Positions 7,022 to 60,613 of a stretch of DNA of 64,000 bases are shown piece after piece; the stretch's first letter is position 1; each line of letters begins with the position of its first letter. The notes below the pieces were generated by a model. It was not told the origin of the DNA, did not search any database, and saw only the letters and a program-made list of their open reading frames with translations. Position numbers and translations under genes: made by a program. The DNA is taken from assembly GCA_965231005.1 (NCBI GenBank), contig OZ246405.1, positions 167,204 through 231,203 on the forward strand, read 5' to 3'. Source of the stretch: an uncultured Gammaproteobacteria bacterium. GTDB lineage: Bacteria > Patescibacteriota > Patescibacteriia > Magasanikbacterales > UBA922.

Positions 7022-7056
7022 TAAAAAAGAAATGCCCCGTGCTTGTAACACGAGGA
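7022..7056 (-). terminator. Terminator of GC-rich cassette A
   Basis: Minus strand CCTCGTG-ttacaag-CACGGGG followed by CATTTCTTTTTT. Confidence 0.6.
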
Positions 7057-7090
7057 CTTGGTTTGAGAAGAATGTCAGAGTGTCTGAGAC

Positions 7091-7759
7091 TTAGCTGTCG
7101 ACGACCGCCAGAAAGAGGTTGTCCTTACCATCAAAGGCTATCTCATCCTTGCTCTCGCAGTTGAACACTGAACTCGTGACATAGCGATCTGCCGCGTACA
7201 GCACACAGGGACTCGTCCCACCAGCACTCACCTTCCAGCCGATCGAGCCTGTCGCACGAACAATCGTGCTTGGCGAGAGGAGTCGGAATACAGGGCTGAG
7301 ATGAACACAGGCGTGCGAGAACTCCCAGATGTTCGCAGGGCGCAGACCTCGTCGGGCCAGAATCTCATGCACTTCTGCGAGGGTGAACTTTCTTTGGAGC
7401 TCACCCCTTCTCCACACCTGACCGATACCCACGATCACCATCGTAGTCCACACAGGCTCACTGCTGGTTGCCACATGTGGAGGAAGAAATGCCTCAAAAC
7501 GCTTCTTGATCTCAGGGTAGGCTCTGACACCGACGTTCCCTTCGAAGAGCCTTGCCTCGCGCATGCGCTCGACTGGGCAGACGTCCATGGGGACTTCGTC
7601 AGGCAACCCCAAGTTGTGGTTCAGACATCCACCAACCAGCATGCGCCACGGCTCATCCAGGAACAGGTTGAACACCGTTGTAGTGCCTGGACCACGCTCG
7701 TGCTCCAGCTGTGCGAGCCGTCCGAATTCTGTATACCGCTTTTTTTTCTTACCACTCAT
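7091..7759 (-). CDS. GC-rich hypothetical protein (cassette A, 222 aa)
   Basis: GC-rich third codon positions against an AT-rich background. SD is GGAGTGAAAG directly before the ATG. No domain recognised. Confidence 0.6.
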   Translation of the reverse strand: MSGKKKKRYTEFGRLAQLEHERGPGTTTVFNLFLDEPWRMLVGGCLNHNLGLPDEVPMDVCPVERMREARLFEGNVGVRAYPEIKKRFEAFLPPHVATSSEPVWTTMVIVGIGQVWRRGELQRKFTLAEVHEILARRGLRPANIWEFSHACVHLSPVFRLLSPSTIVRATGSIGWKVSAGGTSPCVLYAADRYVTSSVFNCESKDEIAFDGKDNLFLAVVDS

Positions 7760-7875
7760 CTTTCACTCCATGCCAACTGACAGACCACACCAACCCTTGC
7801 TCCGTGCAAGGACCAATATAGATTCATCAGCCAACTCATTGACCAAGGGAATCATTCCCCCAACCATGTAGATAC

Positions 7876-7902
7876 ACTATAGAGAAATACTTGTGATGTC
7901 AA
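7876..7902 (-). promoter_or_regulatory. Promoter of cassette A
   Basis: TTGACA, 15-bp spacer, TATAGT, placed immediately after the T-tract of the upstream terminator. Confidence 0.5.
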
Positions 7903-7927
7903 GAAAAAACAAGCCTACACAGCTTGT
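7903..7927 (-). terminator. Terminator of the 7956-9095 gene
   Basis: Hairpin ACAAGC-ctgtgtag-GCTTGT followed by TTTTTTC on the minus strand. Confidence 0.55.
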
Positions 7928-7955
7928 TATTTGTTTCTTGTTATTTGTTAATTGC
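7923..7955. repeat. TTGTTAT/TTGTTAATTG repeat array
   Basis: Sequence GCTTGTTATTTGTTTCTTGTTATTTGTTAATTGC, a member of the dispersed TTGTTAATTG family. Confidence 0.6.
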
Positions 7956-9095
7956 TTACTGCACTGTCTTCACTATCACTTGCACATGATCTGGCACAAA
8001 CGGAACAGTTCGCACCCACACAGGTCTAAACTTCACATCAACACTATAGACATGATCGAGAGTCAACACGTGACGTCGAACTTCTTCTTTTGATTTTCCA
8101 AAGAATAATAATTTCTGTAACTGCTTACTTTCTGAATTCAATCGTTGTACGCCGTTATAAAATACTGCAAGCTCTGCTGTCCCAGCATCCAAATCATATC
8201 GTCGCAAACTGACCGTTGCAGCACCTTCACCTTCTCGCAAAATTGTTACATCGTCGATAACACGTTTCATTAATTTTTGACTTGCCAATTTTTGCACTTG
8301 CTGTGCATCGTATGCCACACCAAGTACTGTTGCGACTCCAGAAATTTCAAATTCAGAAACTTCTTTTCCTATATCACCTATTGTTTTTGTACTTTTTTCA
8401 AAAACCTCGTACACTGCTCGCTTTTCTCCAAATTTCTTTTGCAATTTTTCCTTTGCAAGCTCTTCAATTTCTGCAAGCAATTTTTTCTCAGCAGCATCAA
8501 CATCTGACTGACTAAGCACACCAACCGTTCTTACTCCACCAGTCATAGCATGTTTACTGCTTCCATAAATAAATTTTTGTTTTTCTTTTCGAAGTCCAGG
8601 AATAGTAAACCGATCGACCGCATCAATATTGCCGCTTTCCCCTTTTTTGTCAGCATACACTTCTGCCTCTACAGTACCATTTGCAGGAACCGTAGCTCGT
8701 TTCTTGAGTCGGAACAATGTTCCATCTGCTGTTTGCAATCGTGTTGTTGCAACAAGTGGTTGGGAAATATTTGATTCATTGTGCAAGATTACAATTCCAC
8801 CAGCAACACCTTCAATCTTCTTTTCTCCTGTTGGAGAAAAAGATTTTGTGAGCCGAACAGTTGAACTCGCAATCATTCCATCGACATCACCATCATTTGT
8901 CCCTATCATGACCGTTGACTCAACATCAACTGGATCTTCTTTTGTTGTAATAACAATGGTTGCTCGCTTACTCGACATGAATAAAATAATGCCAAGCAAT
9001 GCGATTGTTAAAAAAAGAAAAGATAAGGCAATCAGCTTGTAAAATCGAACTGGCTGCGCAATTGGTGGAGTTGTTGTTCTTCTACGTGGAGACAT
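7956..9095 (-). CDS. Hypothetical membrane-anchored protein co-transcribed with pilB
   Basis: N-terminal transmembrane helix. Start lies 6 nt after the pilB stop. AT-rich. Confidence 0.55.
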   Translation of the reverse strand: MSPRRRTTTPPIAQPVRFYKLIALSFLFLTIALLGIILFMSSKRATIVITTKEDPVDVESTVMIGTNDGDVDGMIASSTVRLTKSFSPTGEKKIEGVAGGIVILHNESNISQPLVATTRLQTADGTLFRLKKRATVPANGTVEAEVYADKKGESGNIDAVDRFTIPGLRKEKQKFIYGSSKHAMTGGVRTVGVLSQSDVDAAEKKLLAEIEELAKEKLQKKFGEKRAVYEVFEKSTKTIGDIGKEVSEFEISGVATVLGVAYDAQQVQKLASQKLMKRVIDDVTILREGEGAATVSLRRYDLDAGTAELAVFYNGVQRLNSESKQLQKLLFFGKSKEEVRRHVLTLDHVYSVDVKFRPVWVRTVPFVPDHVQVIVKTVQ

Positions 9096-16620: not shown

Positions 16621-16657
16621 AACAATGAATTAGCAATTAACAAATAACAATTAACAA
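16621..16657. repeat. TTGTTAATTG-type leader array immediately upstream of ftsH
   Basis: Sense strand reads TTGTTAATTGTTATTTGTTAATTGCTAATTCATTGTT then ATG. No SD. Confidence 0.6.
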
Positions 16658-18130: not shown

Positions 18131-18178
18131 GTAAAAAGCTTCAAAGGCTTTAAATGCCGTAAATGCCATAAAGGTTAA
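18131..18178. repeat. 9-bp tandem array (RGCNTTTAN x5) upstream of the rpsA promoter
   Basis: AAAGCTTCA AAGGCTTTA AATGCCGTA AATGCCATA AAGGTTAAG. Confidence 0.7.
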
Positions 18179-18247: not shown

Positions 18248-18292
18248 GAGCCTTTAAGGCTTTTAAAGCTTTTACAGCATTTAAGGCCTTTC
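18248..18292. repeat. 9-bp tandem array x5 upstream of the cassette B promoter
   Basis: GAGCCTTTA AGGCTTTTA AAGCTTTTA CAGCATTTA AGGCCTTTC. Confidence 0.7.
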
Positions 18293-18295
18293 CTC

Positions 18296-18324
18296 TTGAC
18301 AAAACCGATTTTTTTTGCTATAGT
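18296..18324 (+). promoter_or_regulatory. Promoter of cassette B
   Basis: TTGACA, 17-bp spacer, TATAGT. Near-identical to the cassette F3 promoter. Confidence 0.6.
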
Positions 18325-18368: not shown

Positions 18369-18422
18369 CAGTAAGGTCTCACAGGATGTATCTATTCAGA
18401 TGCATCGTGTGAGACCTTACTG
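18369..18422 (+). other. Perfect 15-bp stem with 24-nt loop in the 260-nt leader of cassette B
   Basis: CAGTAAGGTCTCACA and TGTGAGACCTTACTG. No T-tract follows. Confidence 0.7.
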
Positions 18423-18583
18423 TAGTTCTCCCTGGTTGCTCTTGATGAGCTGCTAGGTTGTTTTTTGACCGTACTGAAAGAAGCCAACTGCCCGAGCGGC
18501 ATACAAGATAGATCCCCACAAGAGATCTGACAGGGCGATCCTGCCCAAACCAAAGGGCAGACTGCCCGACAACGGAGTAGACC

Positions 18584-19669
18584 ATGACTACGAACAACAA
18601 CGGAAGAAACCGAAACCGCCTCCTCGTCACCGACTGGGACGAAGTCGGTCGCGACATCGAGGGCAAGTTCACCCACCGCATCAGCCTGTTCGATGACCTC
18701 GGGCCGGCTCAGCTCCCCCAGGTCAGCGAGATCATCATCCGCGCCATCGAGACGGTCGCACCTGACCCCGAGACCGCTCACAAAGCCGTGGTACGCATCC
18801 AGACCCGCGAAATCCACGAGATCTTCGTGCGCGGTGACAGCTCGCGCGATGTGAAGCCGCGCATGGTCGCACGGGGCAAAGACAAGCACAACGAGATGAA
18901 GGCGAAGCTCGACTACAAGGGCAAGCTGCTCAGCGGCAAGCACAACCGCAAGAACCGGCATCTCCGCGAGAAGCTCGACGAGCTGGTCGAGCGTGTGTCC
19001 ACTGGCGACCTCGACCTCTTCATCGACCGCATCATCGGCAACATCGCCTGGCTCATGCGCGGCGATGGCATCTGGGTCGACGGCACCAAGATGTTCGAGG
19101 GCGAAAAGTTCTTCGCGTCCCAGATCGTGCTCCACAAGGACGACCTGGACGACGAGGAGCTGGAAGAACTGGAAGCCGAAGCCGAGGCCGACCGTGACGC
19201 GGCTGCCATCCGCGATGCCGAGAAGGAAAAGGGTGAGCCGCTGACCGACGAGGAGATCGAGCACGTCAAGGCCGAGCGTCGGCGCAAGTGGGCCGAGAAG
19301 GTCGCGGCGCGCGAGGCTCGCAAGGCCGAGCGTGATGGCAAGTCCGAGTCCGACGGCGAGAGCGGCGGTGAGTCCGGCGGCAAGGGTGACCTGGCCGACG
19401 ACGACAAGCTGAAGGCTCTCGACGGCAAGCTGCCGAGCAACCCCGACGAGGCCGAGCTGGCGCGCCTGCAGAAGAAGGACAAGTGGAGCGCCGCGGACTG
19501 GCGTGCGCACGCCGAGTGGAAGCTGGGCAAGCCGTTCAGCAAGGGCACCGAGGCCCAGGCCGCTCTGCGCGAAGCCAACTGGGACAAGGCCGTGGTCCTG
19601 AAGGGTCTGCAGCACAAGCTCGCCAACCTCGCCAACGGCAACGGTGAGGGCAAGTCCGACGCCAAGTAG
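18584..19669 (+). CDS. GC-rich hypothetical protein with a long charged C-terminal tail (cassette B, 361 aa)
   Basis: ATG with SD GGAG. GC-rich third codon positions. No domain recognised. Confidence 0.6.
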   Translation: MTTNNNGRNRNRLLVTDWDEVGRDIEGKFTHRISLFDDLGPAQLPQVSEIIIRAIETVAPDPETAHKAVVRIQTREIHEIFVRGDSSRDVKPRMVARGKDKHNEMKAKLDYKGKLLSGKHNRKNRHLREKLDELVERVSTGDLDLFIDRIIGNIAWLMRGDGIWVDGTKMFEGEKFFASQIVLHKDDLDDEELEELEAEAEADRDAAAIRDAEKEKGEPLTDEEIEHVKAERRRKWAEKVAAREARKAERDGKSESDGESGGESGGKGDLADDDKLKALDGKLPSNPDEAELARLQKKDKWSAADWRAHAEWKLGKPFSKGTEAQAALREANWDKAVVLKGLQHKLANLANGNGEGKSDAK

Positions 19670-19762
19670 ATTCGCCATCTACACCTGCCTGCCCAAAGGG
19701 TCGGGGGCCGCACGTAGTGATACGTTGTGGCCCCTGCCCCTGGCGGCGGGAACATAAGGAGT

Positions 19763-19790
19763 CACCCATTCTCTGGACAAAGAATGGGTG
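19763..19790 (+). other. 10-bp stem hairpin 3' of cassette B
   Basis: CACCCATTCT-ctggacaa-AGAATGGGTG. Confidence 0.5.
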
Positions 19791-19906: not shown

Positions 19907-19942
19907 TGCCTTTAGAGCCTTTACAGCATTTATGGCCTTTTT
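19907..19942. repeat. 9-bp tandem array x4 upstream of the cassette C promoter
   Basis: TTGCCTTTA GAGCCTTTA CAGCATTTA TGGCCTTTT. Confidence 0.65.
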
Positions 19943-19974
19943 AGATTGACAATACAGTCAATCTAAGGTAACGT
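19943..19974 (+). promoter_or_regulatory. Promoter of cassette C with an overlapping perfect palindrome
   Basis: AGATTGAC-aataca-GTCAATCT spans the -35 TTGACA. The -10 is TAACGT at a 17-bp spacer. Confidence 0.5.
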
Positions 19975-20017
19975 CGTTTCACACACCCCAGACCGCACAG
20001 CGGTGGAGGAACAAACA

Positions 20018-20944
20018 ATGACTGGACCTTTCAAACTTCTCTTTCTCGACTTTGATGGAACTGCAACTGATGCTGAGCGCGAAGGCACTGAGCCTGGACC
20101 GCAAAGCCCTGGTGATCTGTCGTTTGTAGACGGATATCTCAAGGATATTGGGGTCATCTGTGACATTCCCTTGGCGCAAATGCAAAAGAGAAATGCAGCG
20201 CTTGTAGCCGAGATGCTTGCTGATCCAAGACGGCATTGTCTTGTCATTGATGGACAGAAGGTTGCACCAAGTTGTGTTGACCCCTTCCTCAGGACTGGTA
20301 TGGTTGTGAGACTGATTTTGGAAGAATCTGGTCTCATGTCCGAGACACCCGAAACAAGGGCAGCCCGAGACCGCATGATCACCAGTGTGATCTACCCATG
20401 GAACTACAGAGCAAGATCATCGATCTGCTTCCGTGCTGGAGCAAATGCGCTCTTTGCAGCGCTGCGCAACTCCAACATTCACATCATCAGCAACTCACAT
20501 ACAGACGGTGTGAATGGCAAGCTCGACCGTTTGAAGGATGGTCGATGGATCCTCAACGGAGATCAGGGCATTCCTCGTGTCCATGGTGATGCCAAGAAGT
20601 TCATCAACGACCCAAACTGGGAAGGCTCTGACCACATCGGCTGGCATCCGCCAACTGGACTGGAACTCCCAGGTCTTGATCGTGAAGTGCTGCTCCGACG
20701 ACGACTCTACTTCGCCAAGATGGATGCCATTCGCCGTCACTACGGACTCGAATGGGGACAGATCATGGTCGCAGGCGATATCTTCGAACTGGACCTGGCA
20801 GTGCCGTTGACACTGGGCTGCACTGTGGTGCTCATGGCCAACGAATTCACTCCGGGATACGAAATCGACTTCCTCCAGAGCCACCCCAATGGGCATGTGA
20901 TCGACAAGGTCATGGACATCGCAGATCTGTTCCTTGTCCCATAG
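20018..20944 (+). CDS. GC-rich HAD-superfamily hydrolase (cassette C)
   Basis: Motif I FLDFDGT, motif II ISNSHTD, motif IV VAGDIFELD. SD is GGAGGA. Confidence 0.7.
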   Translation: MTGPFKLLFLDFDGTATDAEREGTEPGPQSPGDLSFVDGYLKDIGVICDIPLAQMQKRNAALVAEMLADPRRHCLVIDGQKVAPSCVDPFLRTGMVVRLILEESGLMSETPETRAARDRMITSVIYPWNYRARSSICFRAGANALFAALRNSNIHIISNSHTDGVNGKLDRLKDGRWILNGDQGIPRVHGDAKKFINDPNWEGSDHIGWHPPTGLELPGLDREVLLRRRLYFAKMDAIRRHYGLEWGQIMVAGDIFELDLAVPLTLGCTVVLMANEFTPGYEIDFLQSHPNGHVIDKVMDIADLFLVP

Positions 20945-20966
20945 GAGCGGACATTCAACCCAAATT

Positions 20967-21050: not shown

Positions 21051-21057
21051 GTTTTTT

Positions 21058-21100
21058 CCTTTAAAGCCTTTATAGCATTTAAGGCATTTATAGCCTTTTT
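21058..21100. repeat. 9-bp tandem array x5 upstream of the promoter of the MBL-fold gene
   Basis: TTTCCTTTA AAGCCTTTA TAGCATTTA AGGCATTTA TAGCCTTTT. Confidence 0.65.
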
Positions 21101-22362: not shown

Positions 22363-22562
22363 CAAACTTGTATAGGGATATTCTTTAAGAGAAGAGTGGA
22401 ATCAATAGTTATTAGCTATTAGTTACTAGTTATTAGCAAACTAGGCTTAGATCTTTCTTAAATATTGTCTATTAACTATTAGCTAGTAACTAATTCCTTT
22501 CTTGCAAAGCCATCCTATACTAAGTTGTTAATTGCTAATTGTTAGTTGTTAATTGTTATTAA
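22355..22562. repeat. MITE-like structured intergenic element, copy A
   Basis: Bounded by GCAATTAACAAAC and the inverted TTGTTAATTG array. Carries the internal 12-bp inverted repeat ATTAGTTACTAG/CTAGTAACTAAT. Homologous to copy B at 40612-40836. Confidence 0.6.
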
Positions 22563-25092: not shown

Positions 25093-25124
25093 CAAGCCCG
25101 GCCTTTGGCCGGGTTGTTTTTATT
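25093..25124 (+). terminator. gyrA terminator
   Basis: CCCGGCC-ttt-GGCCGGG followed by TTGTTTTTATTT. Confidence 0.8.
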
Positions 25125-25204
25125 TACATAATAAGTTGTAGACTCCCCCCGACCTTGATCTTGCCAAGGCCGGGAGGGTCTGAGTGTTCTCCTTGTTGTT
25201 TTTG

Positions 25205-32481: not shown

Positions 32482-32488
32482 AAATAAA

Positions 32489-46995: not shown

Positions 46996-47028
46996 AGCAA
47001 TTAACAAATATCAATATAAATCAAGACC

Positions 47029-50022: not shown

Positions 50023-50435
50023 AGGAATACTATTACCCTATTGAAACGCGTGGCAAAAATAAAAAAACAGCTACCAACAAACTGATACCTGCAAGCAAAT
50101 AATAGTAAACAAGGTGAAATTCTTCTCTTTCTTGGGTATTAAAAAGACCCTTATGTTTATGTTGCATAGATTTTGTGTTTGTTTTGATGTTTATGTTTGT
50201 TTGGGGCGCATTGTCCCCTGTCTTTGTGTCCCAACTGGCGTGTGAGATCACACGTTATGATACAAAAGCACTACACACCTACATTATTCTCCGATAAAAC
50301 AACAACCGGATGAAAAATATAAATATCTGCTACTTTTATATAACTATTATAGCAGAAAAAAGGGCGTTTGTCAATAGCAATTTTTTGCAAAAAACCTTTA
50401 CTTTGCGATTCAAGTGTCGTAAAATAGTTACATAT

Positions 50436-51413
50436 ATGAAAAAAAATCTTGCAAAACTTCTCAGAGAATTTCTTGAACATTTAGAAATTGAAAAAAATCG
50501 AAGCAGCAAAACTGTTCAAAACTATACCTTCTATCTTTTTAGATTTTTAGAGTGGCATGGAGAAGATAAAGGGGCAAAAAGTATTGATGGTGAGGCTGTA
50601 CGCCAATATCGTCTTTGGTTAAATAGGCTTGTTGATGTTCACGGGGAACCCTTGAAAAAAAATACACAAAATTATCATCTTATTGCATTGCGTTCTTTTC
50701 TAAAATACCTAGCAAAACGTGATATCACGAGTTTGGCAGCAGAAAAAATTGAATTAATGAAAATGCCAGACCGCCAAGTAACATTTTTAGAAGGCACAGA
50801 TCTTAGTCGCCTACTCGAAGCACCAGTAGAAGAATTAAAAAATACAAAAGACCAAAAAAACGCATCAACAAATAGACTGATCGGTCTTAGAGACAAATGT
50901 ATTTTAGAAATGTTGTTTTCAACCGGTCTACGTGTTTCAGAATTGGCAAAATTAAAAATTGAAGATGTAAATGTTGAAAAGGATGAATTTACTATTCAAG
51001 GGAAGGGAAAGAAAACAAGAATTGTATTTTTATCTGAGCAGGCAAAATACTGGTTAAAAGAATACACAAAAGCAAGAAAAGACATGAATCCTCATTTATT
51101 TGTATCTCATGACAAGAACAAAAAGGCAAGAGACAAAAAAGCAGAAACTCTCGAGTCAATTAGTCCAAGGACGATTCAACGAATTGTTCAAAAATATGCA
51201 AAAATAGCTGGAATTACAAAACCAGTAACTCCTCATACCTTGCGACATTCATTTGCAACAGATCTTTTGCAAAATGGAGCAGATATTAGGAGTGTTCAGA
51301 GCATGCTAGGTCATTCTTCTATAACAACAACACAAATTTACACCCATATTACAGATAAGGAGCTTCGAAAGATACACAAAAAATTCCATGGGAAAAAGCG
51401 AAGTGGCGATTGA
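50436..51413 (+). CDS. Tyrosine site-specific recombinase, XerC/XerD-like
   Basis: Catalytic R..K..HxxR..Y (LRHSFATDLL, GHSSITTTQIYTH). AT-rich. Confidence 0.8.
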   Translation: MKKNLAKLLREFLEHLEIEKNRSSKTVQNYTFYLFRFLEWHGEDKGAKSIDGEAVRQYRLWLNRLVDVHGEPLKKNTQNYHLIALRSFLKYLAKRDITSLAAEKIELMKMPDRQVTFLEGTDLSRLLEAPVEELKNTKDQKNASTNRLIGLRDKCILEMLFSTGLRVSELAKLKIEDVNVEKDEFTIQGKGKKTRIVFLSEQAKYWLKEYTKARKDMNPHLFVSHDKNKKARDKKAETLESISPRTIQRIVQKYAKIAGITKPVTPHTLRHSFATDLLQNGADIRSVQSMLGHSSITTTQIYTHITDKELRKIHKKFHGKKRSGD

Positions 51414-53023: not shown

Positions 53024-53097
53024 GGTGGCTATGGTGTAGTGGTAACACAGAGGCTTGTGGTGCCTTTATCACGGGTTCGATCCCCGTTAGCCACCCC
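53024..53097 (+). tRNA. tRNA-His (anticodon GTG) with an encoded G-1
   Basis: Hand-folded. G-1 pairs with discriminator C. Acceptor GTGGCTA/TAGCCAC. Anticodon loop TTGTGGT. T-arm ACGGG-TTCGATC-CCCGT. Confidence 0.8.
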
Positions 53098-53116
53098 TTT
53101 GGGGGTTTTTTATTTG
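53089..53116 (+). repeat. tRNA-His 3' end plus terminator, repeat copy i
   Basis: AGCCACCCCTTTGGGGGTTTTTTATTTG. An identical 28-mer recurs at 54081-54108 and a diverged copy at 53569-53606. Confidence 0.8.
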
Positions 53117-53120
53117 GATC

Positions 53121-53149
53121 AAAAAAACACCAGAGTTGGTGTTCTTTTG
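53121..53149. repeat. Cassette-boundary hairpin module 1
   Basis: AAAAAAACACCA-gagt-TGGTGTTCTTTTG. Confidence 0.75.
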
Positions 53150-53182: not shown

Positions 53183-53500
53183 CTACCCCCCTGCCTCAAA
53201 TATCGTTGCCAGATCTTCAATTTCCTCTCTTGTCCATCCATCATAATATTCGCTCCAAAAAGGATGTTCTTTATCCTCAAGCATCGCTCTATAGTCGTAG
53301 GACAGACTCTTAAACGAGACTGGGGATGGGTTTTCAGACTCCAGCACACTACGCTCTTTCTCAAATTCACGCTGGAATATTTTCATCACCCTGTCTGTAG
53401 GTGCCAACTGCTTGGCTTTTTCACTGACCCTGTTTAGTATCTCCTCACCCATCTCCTTTACATACGCAATTTCCCTATATGGGCTCAATTCACTATCCAT
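53183..53500 (-). CDS. Hypothetical 105-aa acidic protein (cassette F6)
   Basis: ORF between boundary modules. Its promoter TTGTTC, 16-bp spacer, TATAAT lies at 53528-53555. Confidence 0.5.
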   Translation of the reverse strand: MDSELSPYREIAYVKEMGEEILNRVSEKAKQLAPTDRVMKIFQREFEKERSVLESENPSPVSFKSLSYDYRAMLEDKEHPFWSEYYDGWTREEIEDLATIFEAGG

Positions 53501-53568
53501 ATGAAAATATTAATAATAATCTCCCTCATTATAGCACCAATCAGAGAATGAACAAAGTTCTAATACCG

Positions 53569-53606
53569 CCCACTAACCCACCCCAGTGGGGGTTTCTTTT
53601 TTTACG
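53569..53606 (+). repeat. Diverged copy ii of the tRNA-His 3' end plus terminator module
   Basis: CCCACTAACCCACCCCAGTGGGGGTTTCTTTTTTTACG compared with CCCACTGAGCCACCCCTTTGGGGGTTTTTTATTTGCAC. Confidence 0.6.
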
Positions 53607-53653
53607 CTAATTTTCTTGTTTTTGTTGAGGGAAATATCTTGGCTCTAACCAAA

Positions 53654-53683
53654 CAAAAAAACACCATGGTTGGTGTTCTTTTG
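53654..53683. repeat. Cassette-boundary hairpin module 2
   Basis: AAAAAAACACCA-tggt-TGGTGTTCTTTTG, followed by a second hairpin GCGGTTT..AAACCGC. Confidence 0.75.
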
Positions 53684-53740
53684 TGCTCGCGGTTTTTTGG
53701 GAAACCGCGAAAACCTTTGGCCTTTCCTCTCACGTAAGGA

Positions 53741-53974
53741 TTACCGACGAGAGCAGGAATCGCGAGGCAAGGAAAGCACTGTTCCCCGGCCACCGCACCG
53801 AGAACAGCGGGATCTTGCAGCGCGCCTGCTGCACCCTCCTCCGCCACATGCGGGACATGTCGGGCAGGTCATCGTGAACCCGTGCCCTCCACATCTTGTG
53901 CACGTTGAAGAGAACGTAACTTCGCCACTTCCATCACACCTGGGGCAAGTGACTCTAATTTCCTTCTCATTCAT
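53741..53974 (-). CDS. GC-rich 77-aa DnaJ-type zinc-finger miniprotein with four CxxCxGxG repeats (cassette F5)
   Basis: CPRCDGSG, CTRCGGHG, CPTCPACGGGG, CSRCGGRG. SD is AAGGAGG. The promoter TTGACA, 17-bp spacer, TATATA lies at 54008-54036. Confidence 0.6.
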   Translation of the reverse strand: MNEKEIRVTCPRCDGSGEVTFSSTCTRCGGHGFTMTCPTCPACGGGGCSRRAARSRCSRCGGRGTVLSLPRDSCSRR

Positions 53975-54071
53975 ACAACCCTCCTTGGTTGTTGAAACAC
54001 ACATTCATATATAGCATGGCAGTTCTTTCTTGTCAACTGTACAACACTCTTTATATCGAGGATACTAATAT

Positions 54072-54108
54072 CCCCCACTGAGCCACCCCTTTGGGGGTTT
54101 TTTATTTG
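54072..54108 (+). repeat. tRNA-His 3' end plus terminator, repeat copy iii (identical 28-mer)
   Basis: CCCCCACTGAGCCACCCCTTTGGGGGTTTTTTATTTG. Confidence 0.8.
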
Positions 54109-54163
54109 CACTGTGTCTCGCCGAAGCCCTGTCTGCCGACAGGCAGGTTTAGTGAAGGCGGAT

Positions 54164-54192
54164 CAAAAAAACACCATTACTGGTGTTCTTTT
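54164..54192. repeat. Cassette-boundary hairpin module 3
   Basis: AAAAAAACACCA-ttac-TGGTGTTCTTTTG. Confidence 0.75.
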
Positions 54193-54303
54193 GTTATCGG
54201 GCGATTCGTATTGAATCACCCATCTCCTTCAGCCCGATATAGCTCGGGCCAGGCCTCTGCAAAAAGCAGGAGTGAAAGGTGGCTTTCTCAGCCACTACGT
54301 TTT

Positions 54304-55476
54304 TCATCGGCTTTTCCGACGGCGTCTATTCCTTGGGCTAGGTTTTCTTCGCGGTCTTCTCAGTCGGATAAAGGACAAACCCTCGAGTGCACGAATGGCA
54401 GACTGCTCTTTGGATTTTTCCGCACTGGATCCAACACCAATCCCAATTCGCTGCTCTCCGACGAACACTTGTCCGACGAACCAAGTCTGCGAACCTGACC
54501 TTTGCTCAACCTCATAGGTTGGCAACACGCCGAGCTGCTCTAGTAACCTGCGCTGCAATTTCTCGACTGCGCTGTTTGGGGTCCCTTCAGCATACTTCTG
54601 GACCTCGAGCTCGACTTGTGGAGTAGAGGCCGGAGGTGGTTCAGGTTCAACGTTACTTGGAGCCCGAGACGTTGTTGCTGGAGAAGTTCGTTTGTTTGTG
54701 GAAGATAGGGTTCGTGAAGGTTCGCTGCGAGGAGCTGTTGGCTCAACTCGAGTGAACAACTGTGGATGCATTCTGGCGAGCTTTATCAGTGCGCGCCTTG
54801 CAGCTTCTTCCATGGACGCAGGCTTAGTACTGCCCATGCCAGATGCGAAATCCTGTCCATCGATGAGAGCAACAGACCGGACTCTGCCGGTTGGAATCTT
54901 CCCGTTCTGCTTCACAGTCCTCATGCCAGGCTTTTTGCCAAGCCGAGTAACCAGAAGCCGAAACCTCACAAAAGGAGTGTTGAGATGTCTCTGTCTGACT
55001 TCTGGGAGCCGAGAACAAACAAGTCTGTGAACAAACGACCTTGCTTCTCCATACCCGACATCAAGGTTAATCGCCTGAATGATTGCTTCCATTGCACAAG
55101 CAACCTTCATGTAGCTGCGACCAATACGGAGGCTCTTCTTTTGGTACACAGTCCCGCGGATGTCGAGATGCAAGCCAAGACTGATTCCAATATCAGCAAG
55201 ACATCGGTTGCTAACCAGCTCTCGGCAGTATCGAGTCAGTTCGACTAACGTCTCCCCTGGTGCTCGATGGCTGACAAGATATCCTCTGACAATACCTTCG
55301 AGAAGTCCGTCACCGATCCACTCGAATTCTCTGTTGTCGCCGAGCTCGCTTGCTTCGGGATTCTCCCAGACAAATTCCTTGGTAGTCAGTGCAACGAGAA
55401 GAACTCGCTTGTCTTCGAACGTCACACCGATCTTTTTCTCAACTCGCGAAACAAGTTCGCGGTCAGATTGGTGCAT
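54304..55476 (-). CDS. GC-rich RNase III-like protein with two C-terminal dsRBDs, a Pro/Ser/Thr-rich linker and an Arg-rich tail (cassette F4)
   Basis: The signature NREFEWIGDGLLEGIV parallels ERLEFLGDSILS. Two dsRBD C-terminal halves are present (GSTKPASMEEAARRALIKL and GSSAEKSKEQSAIRALEGL). The second catalytic Asp appears replaced by Cys in hand alignment (ACAMEAI versus ADTVEAL). The promoter lies at 55565-55593. Confidence 0.7.
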   Translation of the reverse strand: MHQSDRELVSRVEKKIGVTFEDKRVLLVALTTKEFVWENPEASELGDNREFEWIGDGLLEGIVRGYLVSHRAPGETLVELTRYCRELVSNRCLADIGISLGLHLDIRGTVYQKKSLRIGRSYMKVACAMEAIIQAINLDVGYGEARSFVHRLVCSRLPEVRQRHLNTPFVRFRLLVTRLGKKPGMRTVKQNGKIPTGRVRSVALIDGQDFASGMGSTKPASMEEAARRALIKLARMHPQLFTRVEPTAPRSEPSRTLSSTNKRTSPATTSRAPSNVEPEPPPASTPQVELEVQKYAEGTPNSAVEKLQRRLLEQLGVLPTYEVEQRSGSQTWFVGQVFVGEQRIGIGVGSSAEKSKEQSAIRALEGLSFIRLRRPRRKPSPRNRRRRKSR

Positions 55477-55617
55477 GTGCACCTCCCAATATGCTATGAA
55501 GCTCTACCCTTCTTGTGCGAAGAGGAGCTTAGTTTTTATATGCCCATGTTTTGTGGGACGTATAAACATATCATAACACAGTTTTTTTGTCAATAAAGCG
55601 AACTTTTTAATGAAATA

Positions 55618-55649
55618 TCAAAAAAACACCATTTTCTGGTGTTCTTTTG
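55618..55649. repeat. Cassette-boundary hairpin module 4
   Basis: ATCAAAAAAACACCA-tttt-CTGGTGTTCTTTTG. Confidence 0.75.
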
Positions 55650-55800
55650 ATTGGCCCCAACAATGATGTTCGTCATGTCAGAGCGGTGTTTGGTCAACTG
55701 CAAGCAGCTGCCTAAGTAGGGAGCATTCGTCAACGAGTGACAAATGATTCCAAGGGCCAAAGGCCAGAATCTGGAGGACTATGATTTTTTTTGCTGGCGA

Positions 55801-56214
55801 CTAGCTCAGCAGTTCGCGGATGCTCGTGCTAAGCGACTCGCTCAGGTGTTGATCGACAACGAGCTTGCCATCGACCTTGTTCATGATGACGACATGGGTC
55901 ATGCCATTCGAGGACATTTCTGCCTCGAGCAACAGCTGATACATGTCGATGAGTTTGACAGGAATCTTCTTGAGCATCTCTGGGTTTCTCGCAAACGATT
56001 GAATCGACACGATGTTGCCAGTGAGATCAGGAAAAAGCGCGTCTCCATTCTCGTCCCACAGAGGGGAATCTTCAGGTTCGCTCACAGTGACCACTGCGAC
56101 GCGTCCATCGGACCAAATCCTTCTCAGCTTCTCCTCCTCTCGTCGAGTGAAGGAGCATCCGAAATGATCTGCAAGAACCCAACAGGCCCTATCATACTTA
56201 TCATACCTATCCAT
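55801..56214 (-). CDS. GC-rich hypothetical 137-aa protein (cassette F3)
   Basis: The promoter TTGACA, 16-bp spacer, TATATT is at 56248-56275. The leader carries the inverted repeat GTCCA-caaaa-TGGAC. SD is AAGGAGGTGAAAG. Confidence 0.55.
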   Translation of the reverse strand: MDRYDKYDRACWVLADHFGCSFTRREEEKLRRIWSDGRVAVVTVSEPEDSPLWDENGDALFPDLTGNIVSIQSFARNPEMLKKIPVKLIDMYQLLLEAEMSSNGMTHVVIMNKVDGKLVVDQHLSESLSTSIRELLS

Positions 56215-56328
56215 CTTTCACCTCCTTGTCCATTTTGTGGACGCTTTAATATAGCATAAAAAAAGCTTTTTGTCAAGGGGGAATCCTGAATATTTATTTA
56301 AAATAAAGCATTTTTTTGCAAATTTAAT

Positions 56329-56347
56329 ATCAAAAAAACACCATTTT
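56329..56347. repeat. Cassette-boundary module 5 (truncated, 5' arm only)
   Basis: ATCAAAAAAACACCATTTT then AACAATGATG. The 3' arm present in module 4 is deleted. Confidence 0.6.
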
Positions 56348-56398
56348 AACAATGATGCCTTTTTGGTTTAGGGCAATGCTCCAAGATTGCCCCTCCCC

Positions 56399-56761
56399 CT
56401 ATGAATGTTCTTGTTCGAGTCGACGGAGAATCCGCAGCGCAGACTCTGCGAATTCGTGATCCTGGTCAAACCGATCTGGTATGTTTCGCTGTGTGTTACC
56501 GATAGACGTACGAGAAAACTGTGGGAACGCCACATGAGTCGCTGGAACATCCATGTGGCTGAACCAGTAAAGAAAGTAGATGCACAGCTTTTGCGCTCGA
56601 CTCAGTGGCTCACCACTCTTGTGAAAACCGATCTTGTCAAGATCGACTCCGCATACGTCAGCACAAACTGCAATCACACGCTCTGTTTTGTATCGCCGCC
56701 GCTCCATTGCAGCACTTCGCAGCACCTGTCCGGGTGGATCTGTACTATAGATGCACCTCAT
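56399..56761 (-). CDS. GC-rich 120-aa protein with a possible DnaA-C-terminal-like HTH (cassette F2)
   Basis: Translationally coupled to F1 through an ATGA overlap. LSRAQKLCIYFLYWFS..HVAFPQFSRTSIGNTQ loosely parallels the DnaA domain IV pattern. Confidence 0.45.
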   Translation of the reverse strand: MRCIYSTDPPGQVLRSAAMERRRYKTERVIAVCADVCGVDLDKIGFHKSGEPLSRAQKLCIYFLYWFSHMDVPATHVAFPQFSRTSIGNTQRNIPDRFDQDHEFAESALRILRRLEQEHS

Positions 56762-57222
56762 GCCAGGTGTGGACGCGTCTTGCGCGCACAGGCCAGGAAG
56801 CAGCGCGCAATCGGACCGTGCCAGTACGAGTAGAGGATGAACTGCAGTGGCTGGCTCGTGTCAGGAAACATCCGAGTGATCATCCTTCCTCCAGGCCGAT
56901 CAAACCGATCACGCTCTGGCTCGACACGAACAGGAATCCGCGGGTGATCCACGCGGATCCATGCCGGACCAGCTTGTGTGTGGATCGAAGCGCAGAAAGG
57001 CCCGTCGGTCGAACCTTCCTTGACCATGCAGCCAGTGACGTACTCTCCGGTCTCGAGAAGATGTCGAGCCTGCTCATCGGTGATGGTGTGCTGCACCACT
57101 CGCCGTCCTTCTTCGTCGCGCGGCACCGTACGTGCGGCCGGCGTGCGATCCCACAGACCGTCGTGCCACTTGCGATCACGACGCCTGCCAAAACCAATAT
57201 CTCTGCCGAGTCCCATAGTCAT
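56758..57222 (-). CDS. GC-rich hypothetical 154-aa protein (cassette F1)
   Basis: Start at MTMGLGRD with SD GGAGGTCATC then ATG, identical to the island E gene 1 SD. The promoter TTGACA, 17-bp spacer, TATAAC lies at 57257-57285. Confidence 0.5.
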   Translation of the reverse strand: MTMGLGRDIGFGRRRDRKWHDGLWDRTPAARTVPRDEEGRRVVQHTITDEQARHLLETGEYVTGCMVKEGSTDGPFCASIHTQAGPAWIRVDHPRIPVRVEPERDRFDRPGGRMITRMFPDTSQPLQFILYSYWHGPIARCFLACARKTRPHLA

Positions 57223-57346
57223 GATGACCTCCGTGTTGTAGGAACGTTGCCATAGGGTTATACATGAAAAAGATGAAGATGTCAATTAGGAAAACAAAAA
57301 AACCTTTTTTAAGGTTTACAATATATTTAAATATGAATTTTTGAAT

Positions 57347-57392
57347 GCGCCTTTTAAGCCTTTAAGGCCTCTACGGCTTTTAAAGCCTTTTT
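57347..57392. repeat. 9-bp tandem array x5 at the outer edge of island F
   Basis: GCGCCTTTT AAGCCTTTA AGGCCTCTA CGGCTTTTA AAGCCTTTT. Confidence 0.65.
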
Positions 57393-57568: not shown

Positions 57569-57818
57569 ATCCTGAGGTGTGGGGTCAGGTATTCATCTAT
57601 GTATAGAGAAATATAACCCTCTACCCTAGACAGAATCCACACAATCTCACAAATATCGTATTTTTACTCTAAGTACGTGTAAAAAGAACAATTGCCCACA
57701 AGAAAATACTACAATAAGGCAATTAATGAAAAAATAAAGAGTTCTTAAAATTAAATATGACGCTCCTTGCACACCAAAACAGTATAGGCTATACTTTTAG
57801 AATATACCTAAACCGAGT

Positions 57819-58490
57819 ATGCGAATTTTACTTGTTGAAGATGAGAAAGATATTGTCCAATTTTTAAAGCCAAGCCTTGAATCTGAGTGTTTTGTAGTTG
57901 ATGTTGCAACAGATGGAGAGCAAGGATCTTTTCTTGGACCTACAAACAACTACGATCTCATTATTCTGGACAACATGCTTCCAAAGAAAAATGGAAGAGA
58001 AGTGTGCACAGAAATTAGAGAAGCTGGAAAGACAACACCTATCCTTGTTTTGTCTGTAGTAGAAGAAACAGATCAGAAAGTTGGCCTTCTCAATGCAGGA
58101 GCAGATGACTACATGACAAAGCCATTTTCCCTAGGGGAATTGCTTGCCAGAATGCATGCACTCCTTCGACGACCAAAGAAAATAGAAAGCCAAATTCTGC
58201 AAATCGCTGATCTTACTTTGGATACACGAAAACACCTTGTAAAAAGAGGTGGAAAGGAAATTTACCTAACACGAAAAGAATTTATTTTCCTTGAATACCT
58301 TATGAAAAATCCTGGTGTTGTCTTGTCCAGAGGAATGATAATGGAACATGTCTGGGATATGAATGCTGACCCTTTTTCAAATACAATTGAATCACATGTA
58401 TTAACATTGAGAAAGAAAATTGATACAAAGGGAAAGAAAAAATTGATACGGACTGTTCCAGGAAGGGGTTACAAAATTGAAGCAAGCTAA
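57819..58490 (+). CDS. OmpR-family response regulator
   Basis: Receiver domain (D..D..K) followed by a winged-helix trans_reg_C domain. Confidence 0.85.
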   Translation: MRILLVEDEKDIVQFLKPSLESECFVVDVATDGEQGSFLGPTNNYDLIILDNMLPKKNGREVCTEIREAGKTTPILVLSVVEETDQKVGLLNAGADDYMTKPFSLGELLARMHALLRRPKKIESQILQIADLTLDTRKHLVKRGGKEIYLTRKEFIFLEYLMKNPGVVLSRGMIMEHVWDMNADPFSNTIESHVLTLRKKIDTKGKKKLIRTVPGRGYKIEAS

Positions 58491-58684
58491 AAAATTCAAG
58501 AAAAAAATAATAAAAGTCTGTTCAAGGCTTTTTTTGTTTGTTAAAAGTGAAAATGTTGTGACTTTATATGGAATTTATATTTAATAAATAAAAAATCGAA
58601 ACCGAATTTATCTTTACAAAGATTTAAAGACATATAATTAATACAAAAGACAACTTTCTATCAAAAAAAATAAATACAGACAAC

Positions 58685-59386
58685 ATGAATATCCCAAGAA
58701 CTGAGGGGAAACGTGTTTGGAGGGATTTTCGCGAGACAACATTTAACGAGAGGCTGAAAATCGGATATAGCCAAGTGAAACAACGTTGGGCCAACGCTCC
58801 TGCTCATTTTACTAATAAGTCATTACAAATTTGTGGACATCCAGTTATGAATAGTTGGGAAAAAAACTACATGAAATTACTTGCAAACATTGCCACAAGT
58901 AATGGTGGCGATATTGTGGAAGTCGGATATGGGATGGGAATCTCTGCAAAATTCATCCAGACAAACATAAATATTCAATCTCACATAATAATAGAGGCAA
59001 ACAAAGATGTTTTTGAGAAAGCAGTTGAGTTTGCACAGCAAGATTCAAAAAAAATAAAACCCGTATTTGGATTTTGGGAAGAAATTATACCAGAAATGGA
59101 AGATAACTCTATTTCTGGTATTTTGTTTGACACATATCCACTTTCAGAAGATGAAATCCACAGAAATCACTTTCCATTTTTCAAGCATGCATACCGAATA
59201 TTAAAACCAGGAGGTGTCCTTACATATTATTCTGATGAAGCAACAGATTTTTCAGACGACCACGTTCAAGAGCTGGTCGATGCAGGATTTAGCAGAATTA
59301 ATAGTTTTCTTTGTGAAGTTAACCCACCTCCAGACTGCAAATATTGGAAGAGCAATACGATCCTTGCGCCCATCATTGTTAAATAA
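58685..59386 (+). CDS. Guanidinoacetate N-methyltransferase (GAMT/RMT2) family SAM-dependent methyltransferase
   Basis: Matches vertebrate GAMT along its length: ICGHPVMNSWEKNYM, VEVGYGMG, ILFDTYPLSEDE, LKPGGVLTYYS and NPPPDCKYW. Confidence 0.7.
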   Translation: MNIPRTEGKRVWRDFRETTFNERLKIGYSQVKQRWANAPAHFTNKSLQICGHPVMNSWEKNYMKLLANIATSNGGDIVEVGYGMGISAKFIQTNINIQSHIIIEANKDVFEKAVEFAQQDSKKIKPVFGFWEEIIPEMEDNSISGILFDTYPLSEDEIHRNHFPFFKHAYRILKPGGVLTYYSDEATDFSDDHVQELVDAGFSRINSFLCEVNPPPDCKYWKSNTILAPIIVK

Positions 59387-59486
59387 TAAGACACAAGACA
59401 CAAACCAACATATCAAATCGCAAAGTTTGTATCTTGCATCTTAAGATTTAATCCGAGGCTCTTTCACAACCCTAAGGAGGGAAAAT

Positions 59487-59894
59487 ATGAGCACACAAAC
59501 ACAAACATTTGGAACGCACCTCATACTGGATTGCTATGGTGCAGATCCCAAAAAACTTCAAGACGTTGGTCTCATCTTTCGCTTTCTGGATGAATTGCCT
59601 GCACTCATTGGAATGCAGAAAATTGGCCCTCCCCAGATGGCAAATTTCGATGACGAAGCAATTGCTGGTGTGACTGGCGTCATCCAGATTGTTACGTCAC
59701 ACATAAGCATCCACACATATGCGCTCAAGCATTGTTTTTTTATGGATGTCTTCTCGTGTAGCGAATTTGACCCACAAACGGTCATTGACCACGTCAAAAA
59801 GGCATTTTCCGTCGATACAATCGAACATACCGTAGTCTCACGTGGAAAACACTTTCCAGTCAACAACCTCAGCCAACCGGAGCAGAAGCAATGA
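59487..59894 (+). CDS. S-adenosylmethionine decarboxylase-like pyruvoyl enzyme of the small SpeH/class 1a type
   Basis: GTHLILDCYG and the TSHISIHTY Ser-cleavage motif. SD is AAGGAGGG. GC above the host level. Confidence 0.65.
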   Translation: MSTQTQTFGTHLILDCYGADPKKLQDVGLIFRFLDELPALIGMQKIGPPQMANFDDEAIAGVTGVIQIVTSHISIHTYALKHCFFMDVFSCSEFDPQTVIDHVKKAFSVDTIEHTVVSRGKHFPVNNLSQPEQKQ

Positions 59895-60613
59895 ATCCGT
59901 TCAAAGCAAGAGCTGGAACACGAAATGACATCGACGCAATCATTGCGATTGAAAAACAGGCTTTCAAAGACTCGGGAGCACCAACATTCGGCCGCAAAGA
60001 GATTGAATCTTGGTTCGATGTTCACCCCGAAGGTGTCCTTTTGGCAGAGAAAGACGGAAGAGTCGTCGCATTTACGTACATGCAACTGATTCACCTAGAT
60101 CCAGAAAACCTGCCCCCATTCAAAACGCATGATGAGCTGTCTGACAATAGCTCGAGTCGAGCAACGCATACGCCTGATGGCAACTGTTTTCACGGATTCA
60201 CTCTTGATTCGATTAGTCCTGGTGCTGGACTTTTTTTGCTTGAAAAGGCAAAAGAGTTTGTTAAACAAAAAGGAAAACCCTATTTGTTTGGCACATCCCG
60301 AATCGTTGGGTTCAACAATGTCATGCGTGCTGTAGCACTCATGAACCCAGAAATCACGCTGACAAAAGAGCTTGAACAGAGCATTGCCGTATGGTATGCT
60401 AGAAAAACTGCAGCGATGGTAAATGGATGGATCGGGAAACTCATACCAGACACGCCCAACACAGCAGACCTCGTCCTCCCTGAACTCGACTCTCCAGATC
60501 CAATCCTTGGGTTCTACCTCATGAATGAGTGTGAAATGCACTCGTTTCTACCAGACTTCATTCATGATCCGCCCAGCCGTGGCCATGCCTTCCTCTGCCT
60601 TTGGCATATTTAG
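59891..60613 (+). CDS. GNAT-family N-acetyltransferase-like protein
   Basis: ATGA overlap with the preceding gene. GNAT-like core. GC above the host level. Confidence 0.5.
   Translation: MNPFKARAGTRNDIDAIIAIEKQAFKDSGAPTFGRKEIESWFDVHPEGVLLAEKDGRVVAFTYMQLIHLDPENLPPFKTHDELSDNSSSRATHTPDGNCFHGFTLDSISPGAGLFLLEKAKEFVKQKGKPYLFGTSRIVGFNNVMRAVALMNPEITLTKELEQSIAVWYARKTAAMVNGWIGKLIPDTPNTADLVLPELDSPDPILGFYLMNECEMHSFLPDFIHDPPSRGHAFLCLWHI

Follow-up and report, generated by a model that had tools for sequence, protein, structure and literature searches.

The 64,000-nt stretch of contig OZ246405.1 analyzed here (the window) belongs to the chromosome of a poorly sampled, Paceibacteria-type bacterium of the candidate phyla radiation (CPR) and carries eight patches of GC-rich open reading frames (ORFs) set among AT-rich housekeeping genes (Table 1). 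The AT-rich background, with a GC content of 0.36, includes thrS, an ABC-F ATPase, a PilB-type ATPase, ftsH, rpsA, gyrA, ruvA, pepA, ileS, rpiB, rpe, and a two-component system. A two-state hidden Markov model (HMM) on base composition separated this background from nine GC-rich segments, which sum to 16,290 bp (25.5% of the window) and go with 18 ORFs. An earlier sequence-only reading of the same DNA had listed about seventeen GC-rich ORFs. All of them exist, although the count is 18 and four presumed TTG starts are −35 boxes (TTGACA, TTGACC), the true ATG codons lying at 33570, 36666, 37300, and 57222 on the minus strand.

Patch and host genes differ markedly in composition. GC content reaches 0.45–0.66 in the patches versus 0.36 in the host, and GC at third codon positions (GC3) spans 42–88% in the 18 patch ORFs versus 17–31% in 36 host genes, two disjoint ranges (P = 3e-9) that bear out the earlier description of GC-ending codons against an AT-rich background. 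First and second codon positions are shifted too, as is amino acid usage: patch products contain 8.4% Arg (host, 4.6%), 4.9% Lys (host, 9.8%), and 19.5% Phe + Tyr + Ile + Asn + Lys (host, 27.9%). The codon TTA accounts for 19% of Leu codons in host genes and for only 5 of ~470 in the patches. Correlation of codon usage with the host varies among patches, from −0.62 to 0.58, a heterogeneity that points to several sources.

The compositional edges are tight—HMM segments end 16–180 bp beyond the ORF ends—yet they do not coincide exactly with the reading frames. The proposed switch of composition near each start and stop holds at the outer edges and fails inside the multigene patches, where the spacers stay off host composition.

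Table 1. Patches, regulatory modules, and associated features, in window coordinates
Feature	Position	Strand	Details
Patch 1	7034-7814	-	HMM segment, GC 0.56; single orphan ORF 7091-7759 (222 aa); SD GGAGTGAAAG
Patch 1 promoter	7902-7874		TTGACA-17-TAGTGT, outside the segment
Patch 1 terminator hairpin	7055-7035		
Patch 2	18402-19778	+	Most GC-rich HMM segment (0.63); ORF 18584-19669, 361 aa, GC3 0.88
Patch 2 promoter	18296-18324		AT-rich DNA, directly 3′ of a 9-bp repeat array; leader ~260 nt
9-bp repeat array (GCNTTTANR)n	18250-18292	+	Adjoins −35 box of patch 2 promoter
Further 9-bp array	19908-19941		
Further 9-bp array	21057-21099		Before host gene 21172
Further 9-bp array	18133-18175	-	rpsA side
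Further 9-bp arrays	57349-57391; 63909-63942		
Patch 3	19972-20961	+	HMM segment; ORF 20018-20944 (308 aa), N-terminal DxDGT motif, possibly HAD-like
Patch 3 promoter	19946-19974		Directly 3′ of second 9-bp array copy
Patch 4	25141-26500	-	HMM segment; ORF 25205-26458 (417 aa), divergent class-I glutamine-amidotransferase-like; strong SD GGGAGGTGA
Patch 4 terminator	25095-25115		Bidirectional, common to convergent gyrA
Patch 5	28843-29485	-	HMM segment; orphan ORF 28921-29469 (182 aa), SD GGGGGTGAAAG; in ileS-pepA slot
Patch 6	32657-39327	-	HMM segment; five-gene island in rpiB-ileS slot; predicted −35/−10 box, SD, and hairpin terminator per gene
Patch 6 genes	37489-39297; 36842-37300; 34888-36666; 33722-34720; 32722-33570	-	602-aa orphan; 152 aa; 592-aa orphan; MTAP-like; UPRT-like
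45-nt terminator module, copy 1	32641-32688		Direct repeat flanking MTAP-like and UPRT-like pair
45-nt terminator module, copy 2	34826-34872		93% identical to copy 1
tRNA-His	53025-53097	+	3′ end adjoins patch 7 cassette array
Boundary module 1	53082-53149		Last 16 nt of tRNA-His, hairpin CCACCCC-TTT-GGGGG + T-run, palindromic terminator AAAAAAACACCA-N4-TGGTGTTCTTTTG
Boundary module 2	53569-53683		tRNA-3′-like stretch, hairpin, 45-nt spacer, palindromic terminator
Boundary module 3	54074-54193		91% identity with copy 1 over 35 nt
Patch 7	53183-57257	-	Array of six ORFs directly after tRNA-His; HMM segments 53683-56189 and 56371-57257
Patch 7 ORFs	53183-53500; 53741-53974; 54304-55476	-	105 aa; DnaJ-type CxxCxGxG zinc finger; divergent RNase III, two dsRBDs, Arg-rich tail
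Patch 7 ORFs, continued	55801-56214; 56399-56761 / 56758-57222	-	137 aa; overlapping pair
Terminator-promoter-5′-hairpin module A	55540-55651	-	Upstream of RNase III-like gene, its predicted driver; paralogous to 56225-56335
Terminator-promoter-5′-hairpin module B	56225-56335	-	Predicted driver of ORF 55801-56214
Patch 8	59487-60698	+	Weakest patch, GC 0.45-0.47; HMM segment 59625-60698; AdoMet decarboxylase 59487-59894
Patch 8 second ORF	59891-60613	+	240 aa, possibly GNAT-like; ATGA overlap with AdoMet decarboxylase
7-bp arrays (TTGTTAA/TTAATTG)n	7924-7961; 16627-16657(-); 22525-22562; 32485-32515(-); 32528-32644; 40613-40643(-); 40806-40836; 46998-47014(-)		
Junction support, patch 1			L022, L023
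Junction support, patches 2-3			L025; patch 3 also Logan assembly L026
Junction support, patches 4-6			L001, L014, L015
Junction support, patches 7-8			L021

Expression signals of the patch genes

Translation initiation distinguishes the same two sets of genes. Shine–Dalgarno (SD) strength was computed as pairing to the canonical anti-SD, with a cut-off of −6 kcal/mol or stronger. By this measure an SD precedes 16 of the 18 GC-rich ORFs (median −11.2) versus 2 of 32 host genes (median −0.6; Mann–Whitney P = 3e-8). The SDs of the GC-rich ORFs are GGAGG-class, as the sequence-only reading had described, but its label "host-type" has to be dropped, given how few host genes possess one. Because the lineage does not use SDs, their presence is a further sign of foreign origin, independent of composition. 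Besides the ORF, the foreign DNA takes in the SD, part of the leader, and in many cases the stem of the terminator, and not, as had been thought, the reading frame only.

Host genes (e.g., starts at 16620−, 17967−, 22566+, 28751−, and 39516+) begin after A/T-rich leaders such as ...ATTAT-ATG. Leaders in L002 and L003, the distant CPR relatives used for synteny (53–63% PepA identity), and in a further relative, L016, are likewise A/T-rich and without SD. In one survey no more than 48% of Parcubacteria had the anti-SD motif (PMC9297842), and a host without SD use fits this published loss in many members of the group. Tandem 7-bp arrays—25 matches in the window versus 0.9 expected—mostly stand directly 5′ of housekeeping start codons (ftsH, gyrA, ileS, and a trxB-like gene), where gene callers at times read them as TTG starts; they may represent an SD-independent translation or leader element. 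Two such arrays (7.9 and 32.6 kb) lie at patch edges in the "wrong" orientation. Others are contained in an intergenic element of ~90 nt that occurs as an inverted repeat (22469-22555 versus 40613-40704; 81.5% identity), one copy lying 5′ of gyrA and the other 3′ of rpe.

Leader strings are shared among patches, as noted earlier: GTGAAAGATG is found three times, in three patches, and GGAGGTCATCATG twice, in two patches, with ~0 expected of each. This recurrence suggests either that the source pools are related or that optimal ribosome-binding sites have converged. Transcripts predicted from two paralogous promoters open with a conserved 5′ stem-loop (55565-55545 and 56248-56228, minus strand; GTCCA-caaaa-TGGAC versus CCCA-caaaaca-TGGG), the stem differences of which look compensatory; it may act as an mRNA-stabilizing hairpin. 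An Rfam scan of the window returned only two tRNAs and, in the long leaders, no riboswitch or noncoding RNA.

Independent transcription units were judged from sequence motifs only. Exact matches to TTGACA-N16-18-TANNNT number 15 in the window versus 3.0 expected, 7 of them upstream of GC-rich ORFs and 8 upstream of host genes, including both tRNA genes; the tRNA-His promoter matches the consensus at 12/12 positions. Since the same boxes precede host tRNA and housekeeping genes, this promoter type is common to the host, which agrees with the earlier view of the promoters as host-type. The further claim that nearly every GC-rich ORF has such a promoter survives as an enrichment, the exact motif being present at 7/18; in the remaining 11 the −35 box carries one mismatch or the −10 box is weak, and a general promoter-consensus scan barely exceeds shuffled controls. 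The boxes reside in AT-rich DNA, usually 5–25 nt 3′ of the T-tract of the preceding terminator.

Foreign DNA typically begins in the 5′ leader, 0–75 nt 3′ of the −10 box, and reaches to the terminator stem or slightly beyond it. Under a strict rule, 10 of the 18 GC-rich ORFs are followed by a hairpin and T-tract, fewer than the complete set once assumed; patch 8, which ends 12 nt 5′ of the host histidine-kinase gene, has no terminator of its own. The terminators of GC-rich ORFs include host-style A-tract/stem/T-tract hairpins as well as GC-rich stems.

Arrays of the 9-bp repeat (GCNTTTANR)n yield 17 matches in the window versus 0.01 expected, and three arrays directly adjoin −35 boxes. They resemble a lineage-specific promoter-upstream element (UP-like or curved DNA) or a protein-binding array. 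Their additional occurrence on the rpsA side and at 57.3 and 63.9 kb argues for a promoter-upstream element of the host.

Variable slots and repeated boundary modules

The nearest genomes by PepA are a Candidatus Paceibacter metagenome-assembled genome (63% identity) and a Magasanikbacteria one (53%). The window order rpe-rpiB-[slot]-ileS-[slot]-pepA-ruvA-...-gyrA is matched by L003; L002 covers the ileS-to-gyrA part and has a thymidine kinase gene upstream of ileS. Content differs in L002/L003 at four slots: rpiB-ileS, ileS-pepA, ruvA-gyrA, and the interval between a metallo-beta-lactamase-fold gene (21172-21786) and rpsA. Between rpiB and ileS there are five GC-rich ORFs in the window and one GC-rich coiled-coil ORF in L003; in L002, the stretch upstream of ileS contains the thymidine kinase gene together with one GC-rich ORF and a coiled-coil ORF that is AT-rich. 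At ileS-pepA, the 182-aa orphan of the window is replaced by a GC-rich PP2C phosphatase in L003 and by AT-rich ORFs in L002. None of the slot ORFs of L002 and L003, GC-rich ones included, is homologous to a window ORF, and the window ORFs have no counterparts in either relative; the inspection of syntenic loci recommended earlier thus revealed slots filled by unrelated genes. Judged from gene order, the rpiB-ileS and ileS-pepA slots are apparent insertion hotspots, conserved across deep CPR divergence. No plasmid similarity was found in the host DNA.

GC-rich coiled-coil ORFs occur near ileS in both relatives: at 4385-5161 in L003 (GC 0.60), inside the rpiB-ileS slot, and at 1931-2641 in L002 (GC 0.65), upstream of ileS beyond the thymidine kinase gene. 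They share weak mutual homology (36% identity over 67 aa, E = 2e-7), which implies either that GC-richness is long-lived or that the same element was reacquired at a hotspot.

Repeated modules accompany the patches at three sites. Next to tRNA-His, a boundary module present in three copies (starting at 53082, 53569, and 54074) marks off two ~0.5-kb, one-ORF cassettes; the modules carry a 16-nt copy of the tRNA-His 3′ end, with 3–4 mismatches in that stretch, and two more copies of their palindrome lie inside the 110-nt terminator-promoter-5′-hairpin modules that precede the next two cassettes. In patch 6, the 45-nt terminator module flanks the MTAP-like and UPRT-like pair. The 9-bp array with its −35 box, finally, occurs three times in succession, before the 18584 ORF, the 20018 ORF, and host gene 21172. 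Integration of a circle, whether Campbell-type or site-specific, would be expected to duplicate modules in this way.

A Xer-type tyrosine recombinase gene of host composition (50310-51413, plus strand; 367 aa with an N-terminal extension of ~50 aa) sits 37 nt 5′ of tRNA-Arg; tRNA-His with the cassette array is 1.6 kb away. Its best scores are to XerD/XerC/XerA, and it reaches 141 bits with the integron-integrase model TIGR02249 (cut-off, 265). Most simply, such a product would be a housekeeping Xer dimer-resolution enzyme. The modules at three sites, together with this gene nearby, may nonetheless hint at a recombinase-assisted route.

Gene products and homology searches

All NCBIfam matches of patch products fall below curated cut-offs. 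The product families proposed earlier were recovered as divergent members, with the exception of the HAD hydrolase. The MTAP-like product scores 181 bits (cut-off, 275), and its best homologues, many of the named ones from methanogens or other archaea, show ~34–49% local identity. Profiles from Pfam and NCBIfam place the UPRT-like and class-I GATase-like products as divergent members of their families. The RNase III-like protein, with two double-stranded RNA-binding domains (dsRBDs) and an Arg-rich tail, has a single 30% match among 5.8 billion proteins; the zinc-finger product is of DnaJ/anti-TRAP type; and a divergent S-adenosylmethionine (AdoMet) decarboxylase was recognized in patch 8. The HAD assignment of 20018-20944 comes down to the DxDGT motif and a PDB match at E = 0.08.

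Other products are orphans or nearly so. A word-prefiltered search of 5.8 billion proteins returned no homologue of the 18584 ORF, and HMMER, run in full against 1.84 billion representatives, gave only two weak matches to the 592-aa ORF. The homology searches that were to provide donor taxonomy named no donor, either in word-indexed searches of 5.8 billion proteins or in the HMMER search of 1.84 billion representatives. Structure predictions run alignment-free for 20018-20944 and 7091-7759 were unusable (predicted local distance difference test scores of 33 and 35). Winged helix-turn-helix-like modules seen by eye in the 602-, 152-, and 592-aa proteins had raised the possibility of paralogy, which was dropped at nonsignificant phmmer E values of 0.05–0.2.

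Neither phage nor defense functions emerged. PHROGs searches of the patch proteins found no phage hallmark, only weak enzyme-family matches (RNase III-like, UPRT-like, and AdoMet decarboxylase); protein scans of IMG/VR found no relatives, and DNA-motif scans found the modules absent from viral contigs. PADLOC returned no defense match for the 10 ORFs tested, which leaves the suggested defense repertoire without backing. The alternative suggestion of a salvage toolkit for an auxotroph is weakened by de novo pyrimidine genes at and beyond the left window edge: pyrE, pyrF, pyrK, pyrD, and a carbamoyl-phosphate-synthase-like gene are distributed over window positions 13-1446 and L022 15596-20669, to the left of the window, with pyrE and pyrF inside the window and pyrD, pyrK, and others just outside it. 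This gene set is unusual in a CPR genome and counts against simple pyrimidine auxotrophy.

Judged from family assignments, the patch genes likely have accessory roles—methylthioadenosine (MTA) and uracil salvage, polyamine synthesis, an RNase III variant, and orphans. A guanidinoacetate-N-methyltransferase-like ORF (Pfam; 58685-59386, host composition) precedes the AdoMet decarboxylase and possible GNAT genes. The genes at 58685-60613, taken with the MTAP-like gene, suggest a putative acquired polyamine/MTA-recycling module, the MTA/polyamine link between AdoMet decarboxylase and MTAP being plausible but inferred.

Gene calls in ENA took long antisense ORFs at 32635-33783 (+) and 55744-56259 (+), displacing, respectively, the Pfam-supported UPRT-like gene and the SD- and promoter-supported ORF 55801-56214; public annotation of these patches is therefore unreliable. 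The 602-aa orphan has a long acidic low-complexity center and a C-terminal tandem duplication of ~110 aa (TELKDGTAREDGAVLYRGFW... / TELTDGTVREDGAVWYKGFW...).

Origin of the patches and its bearing on CPR biology

We conclude, with a probability of roughly two in three, that the patches are horizontally acquired "moron-like" units occupying variable slots of a syntenic, AT-rich, non-SD CPR chromosome. The pattern amounts to dense but recognizable horizontal acquisition. A new gene-capture machine is not demonstrated, and for the dedicated capture-and-express mechanism considered by the sequence-only reading, neither an integron integrase nor, in alignments inspected by eye, attC sites were found. 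Several independent acquisitions of small units, mostly of one gene, would have drawn on GC-richer, SD-using, unsampled pools, probably of mobile-element or accessory genes, with DNA uptake or small integrative elements as the most plausible way in. Retention would have been confined to insertions that had a working promoter, either upstream of the landing site or brought along, and that left their neighbors undisturbed. At three sites, insertion would also have duplicated a local module: the tRNA-His 3′ end with its terminators, the 45-nt terminator, or the 9-bp-array promoter.

Several observations weigh against this account. GC3 of the patch ORFs mostly sits at the value predicted from GC1, by regressions of a type reportedly due to Lawrence and Ochman, which implies little amelioration; nothing closer than ~40% identity was found among 15 billion proteins, the same metagenomes included. 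Little amelioration without a close homologue means that a recent transfer from a co-resident organism is not directly supported, and the main point left unexplained is that ORFs both intact and near equilibrium in their foreign composition have no detectable donor. Four of the eight patches (1, 4, 5, and 8) have no flanking direct repeats above shuffled controls, and no mobility gene was found inside any patch. PepA identity never exceeds 62–63% (GTDB representatives; JGI metagenomes at 62%), so that empty sites were not observed. If the host has no anti-SD, moreover, translation of structured SD-led mRNAs would be hard to explain. The 602-aa orphan departs from the general GC3 pattern: its GC3 of 42% is far below the value expected from GC1 (72%), and for that reason it may be the oldest insertion.

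Alternatively, the multigene patches (32.7–39.3 and 53.1–57.3 kb) might be decayed integrated elements—a prophage, an integrative element, or tRNA-His islets—that lost integrase and structural genes, with the single-gene patches unrelated to them. Such an origin, which overlaps with moron-like acquisition, would suit the threefold tRNA-His 3′ end, reminiscent of tandem att sites, the co-orientation of genes within each island, the weak PHROGs matches, and an orphan richness typical of mobile-element cargo. It appears unlikely, given that Pfam, NCBIfam, and PHROGs detected no integrase, terminase, capsid, replication, or conjugation gene, that IMG/VR holds no relatives, and that the tRNA-adjacent units, at ~0.5 kb, are too small for autonomy. 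Somewhat more doubtful is an integron-like platform in which a tyrosine recombinase, possibly the Xer-type protein described above, puts circular single-ORF cassettes into palindromic terminator or promoter sites, which would stack foreign ORFs downstream of duplicated host expression signals. Besides the threefold boundary module at the tRNA-His array and the proximity of the Xer-type gene, this proposal draws on five related palindromes with 12–13-bp inverted arms and variable 4–6-nt centers between single-ORF cassettes, on the terminator-promoter modules duplicated at 55.6 and 56.3 kb, on the three 9-bp-array promoters around patches 2 and 3, and on the 45-nt repeat flanking the MTAP-like and UPRT-like pair. 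The recombinase, however, scores under the integron-integrase cut-off, has host composition, and lies four genes away from, and convergent to, the array; the palindromes share the A-tract-stem-T-tract design of ordinary host terminators, four patches lack repeats, and the modules were not found in viral contigs. We consider decidedly improbable its extension to a lineage-wide capture platform, in which circular, single-ORF, SD-led cassettes of foreign DNA would enter palindromic modules through a Xer-family recombinase or through RecA acting on short homologies, each insertion duplicating a module that supplies host promoter and terminator and thereby building the arrays by tRNA-His and at conserved hotspots such as rpiB-ileS.

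Two further explanations dispense with transfer altogether. Selection, or GC-biased gene conversion at recombination hotspots, could keep native, vertically inherited genes GC-rich; the failure to find donors is compatible with this, and the weakly homologous GC-rich ORFs near ileS in two distant CPR genomes hint at persistent GC-richness. We judge it very improbable, as the shift extends beyond synonymous sites to first and second codon positions and amino acids, the initiation signal is unlike that of host genes, and the relatives' slots hold unrelated genes. The difference in GC3 (0.88 versus 0.24) also far exceeds known gene-conversion effects. Chimeric assembly or contamination, which the metagenome source and a MEGAHIT contig that stops within the most GC-rich ORF (window position 19484) could suggest, is scarcely credible: every patch and both its junctions recur at 99.98–100% identity in MEGAHIT contigs of two samples from one project, ERR2281800 and ERR2281801, and a Logan assembly repeats patch 3. 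Past each patch, moreover, the host gene predicted by synteny resumes, and boundaries follow gene and regulatory architecture. Reproduction in independent assemblies thus argues against a chimera; those assemblies differ by 0–2 nt only and gave no signal in the ratio of nonsynonymous to synonymous substitutions. Engineering, also floated at the outset, does not square with orphan genes in the metagenome of an uncultivated CPR bacterium.

Moron-like acquisition, the account we favor, can be placed among known systems. Phage morons are independent promoter-ORF-terminator units of deviant GC content (Juhala/Hendrix; reviewed by Cumby et al. 2012, PMC3594210). The patches resemble them in deviant GC, in standing between genes of conserved order, and in cargo often of unknown function; by motif, promoters and terminators of their own are predicted for part of the ORFs. 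Unlike morons, they lie in a cellular CPR chromosome among housekeeping genes (thrS, ftsH, rpsA, gyrA, ruvA, and ileS), with no prophage or phage hallmark genes; they number 18 ORFs in 64 kb, and they are SD-led units in a non-SD genome. Islands integrated at tRNA genes by tyrosine integrases share the array at a tRNA 3′ end, direct repeats of that end, and a tyrosine recombinase gene nearby, but here no recombinase lies within 53.1–57.3 kb, the Xer-like gene is on the other side of the tRNA, and the units are ~0.5-kb single ORFs. Integrons and clusters of attC sites lacking integrases (CALINs) likewise consist of tandem single-ORF cassettes of mostly orphan content with related hairpin-forming repeats between them. 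The window nevertheless has no IntI and no attI or cassette-promoter (Pc) arrangement, and each cassette has −35/−10 boxes of its own. Integron attC sites are imperfect R″-L″...L′-R′ palindromes of 57–141 bp, whereas the repeats here, aligned by eye, are 28–35-nt A-tract/stem/T-tract bidirectional terminators without R/L boxes or extrahelical bases.

Horizontal gene transfer in Patescibacteria is documented, in the accessible part of one account, as islands and single-gene transfers amounting to at most 13% of a genome and occurring mostly within the phylum (PMC12455944). The window agrees with that part of the account in phylum, in combining islands with individually transferred genes, and in genome streamlining; it differs in that 25% of it is foreign in composition and rich in GC, with no donor that can be identified. 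Neither the SD contrast nor the duplication of regulatory modules figures in the same part of PMC12455944.

CPR bacteria (Patescibacteria) live in dependence on other cells, with genomes that are tiny and streamlined, and how they gain new functions is an open question. In the window, a quarter of a 64-kb stretch probably consists of foreign, orphan-rich, one-gene expression units at apparently conserved hotspots. What deserves follow-up is the contrast in SD use, together with the duplication of boundary modules. GC-rich, SD-led genes would offer a simple marker, readable from sequence, of recent acquisitions in non-SD lineages, and they raise the testable question of whether ribosomes reported to lack the anti-SD in many Parcubacteria can translate SD-led genes. 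If a recombinase drives that duplication, a major uncultivated radiation would possess a novel type of cassette system; otherwise, the patches would reflect dense yet ordinary gene acquisition.

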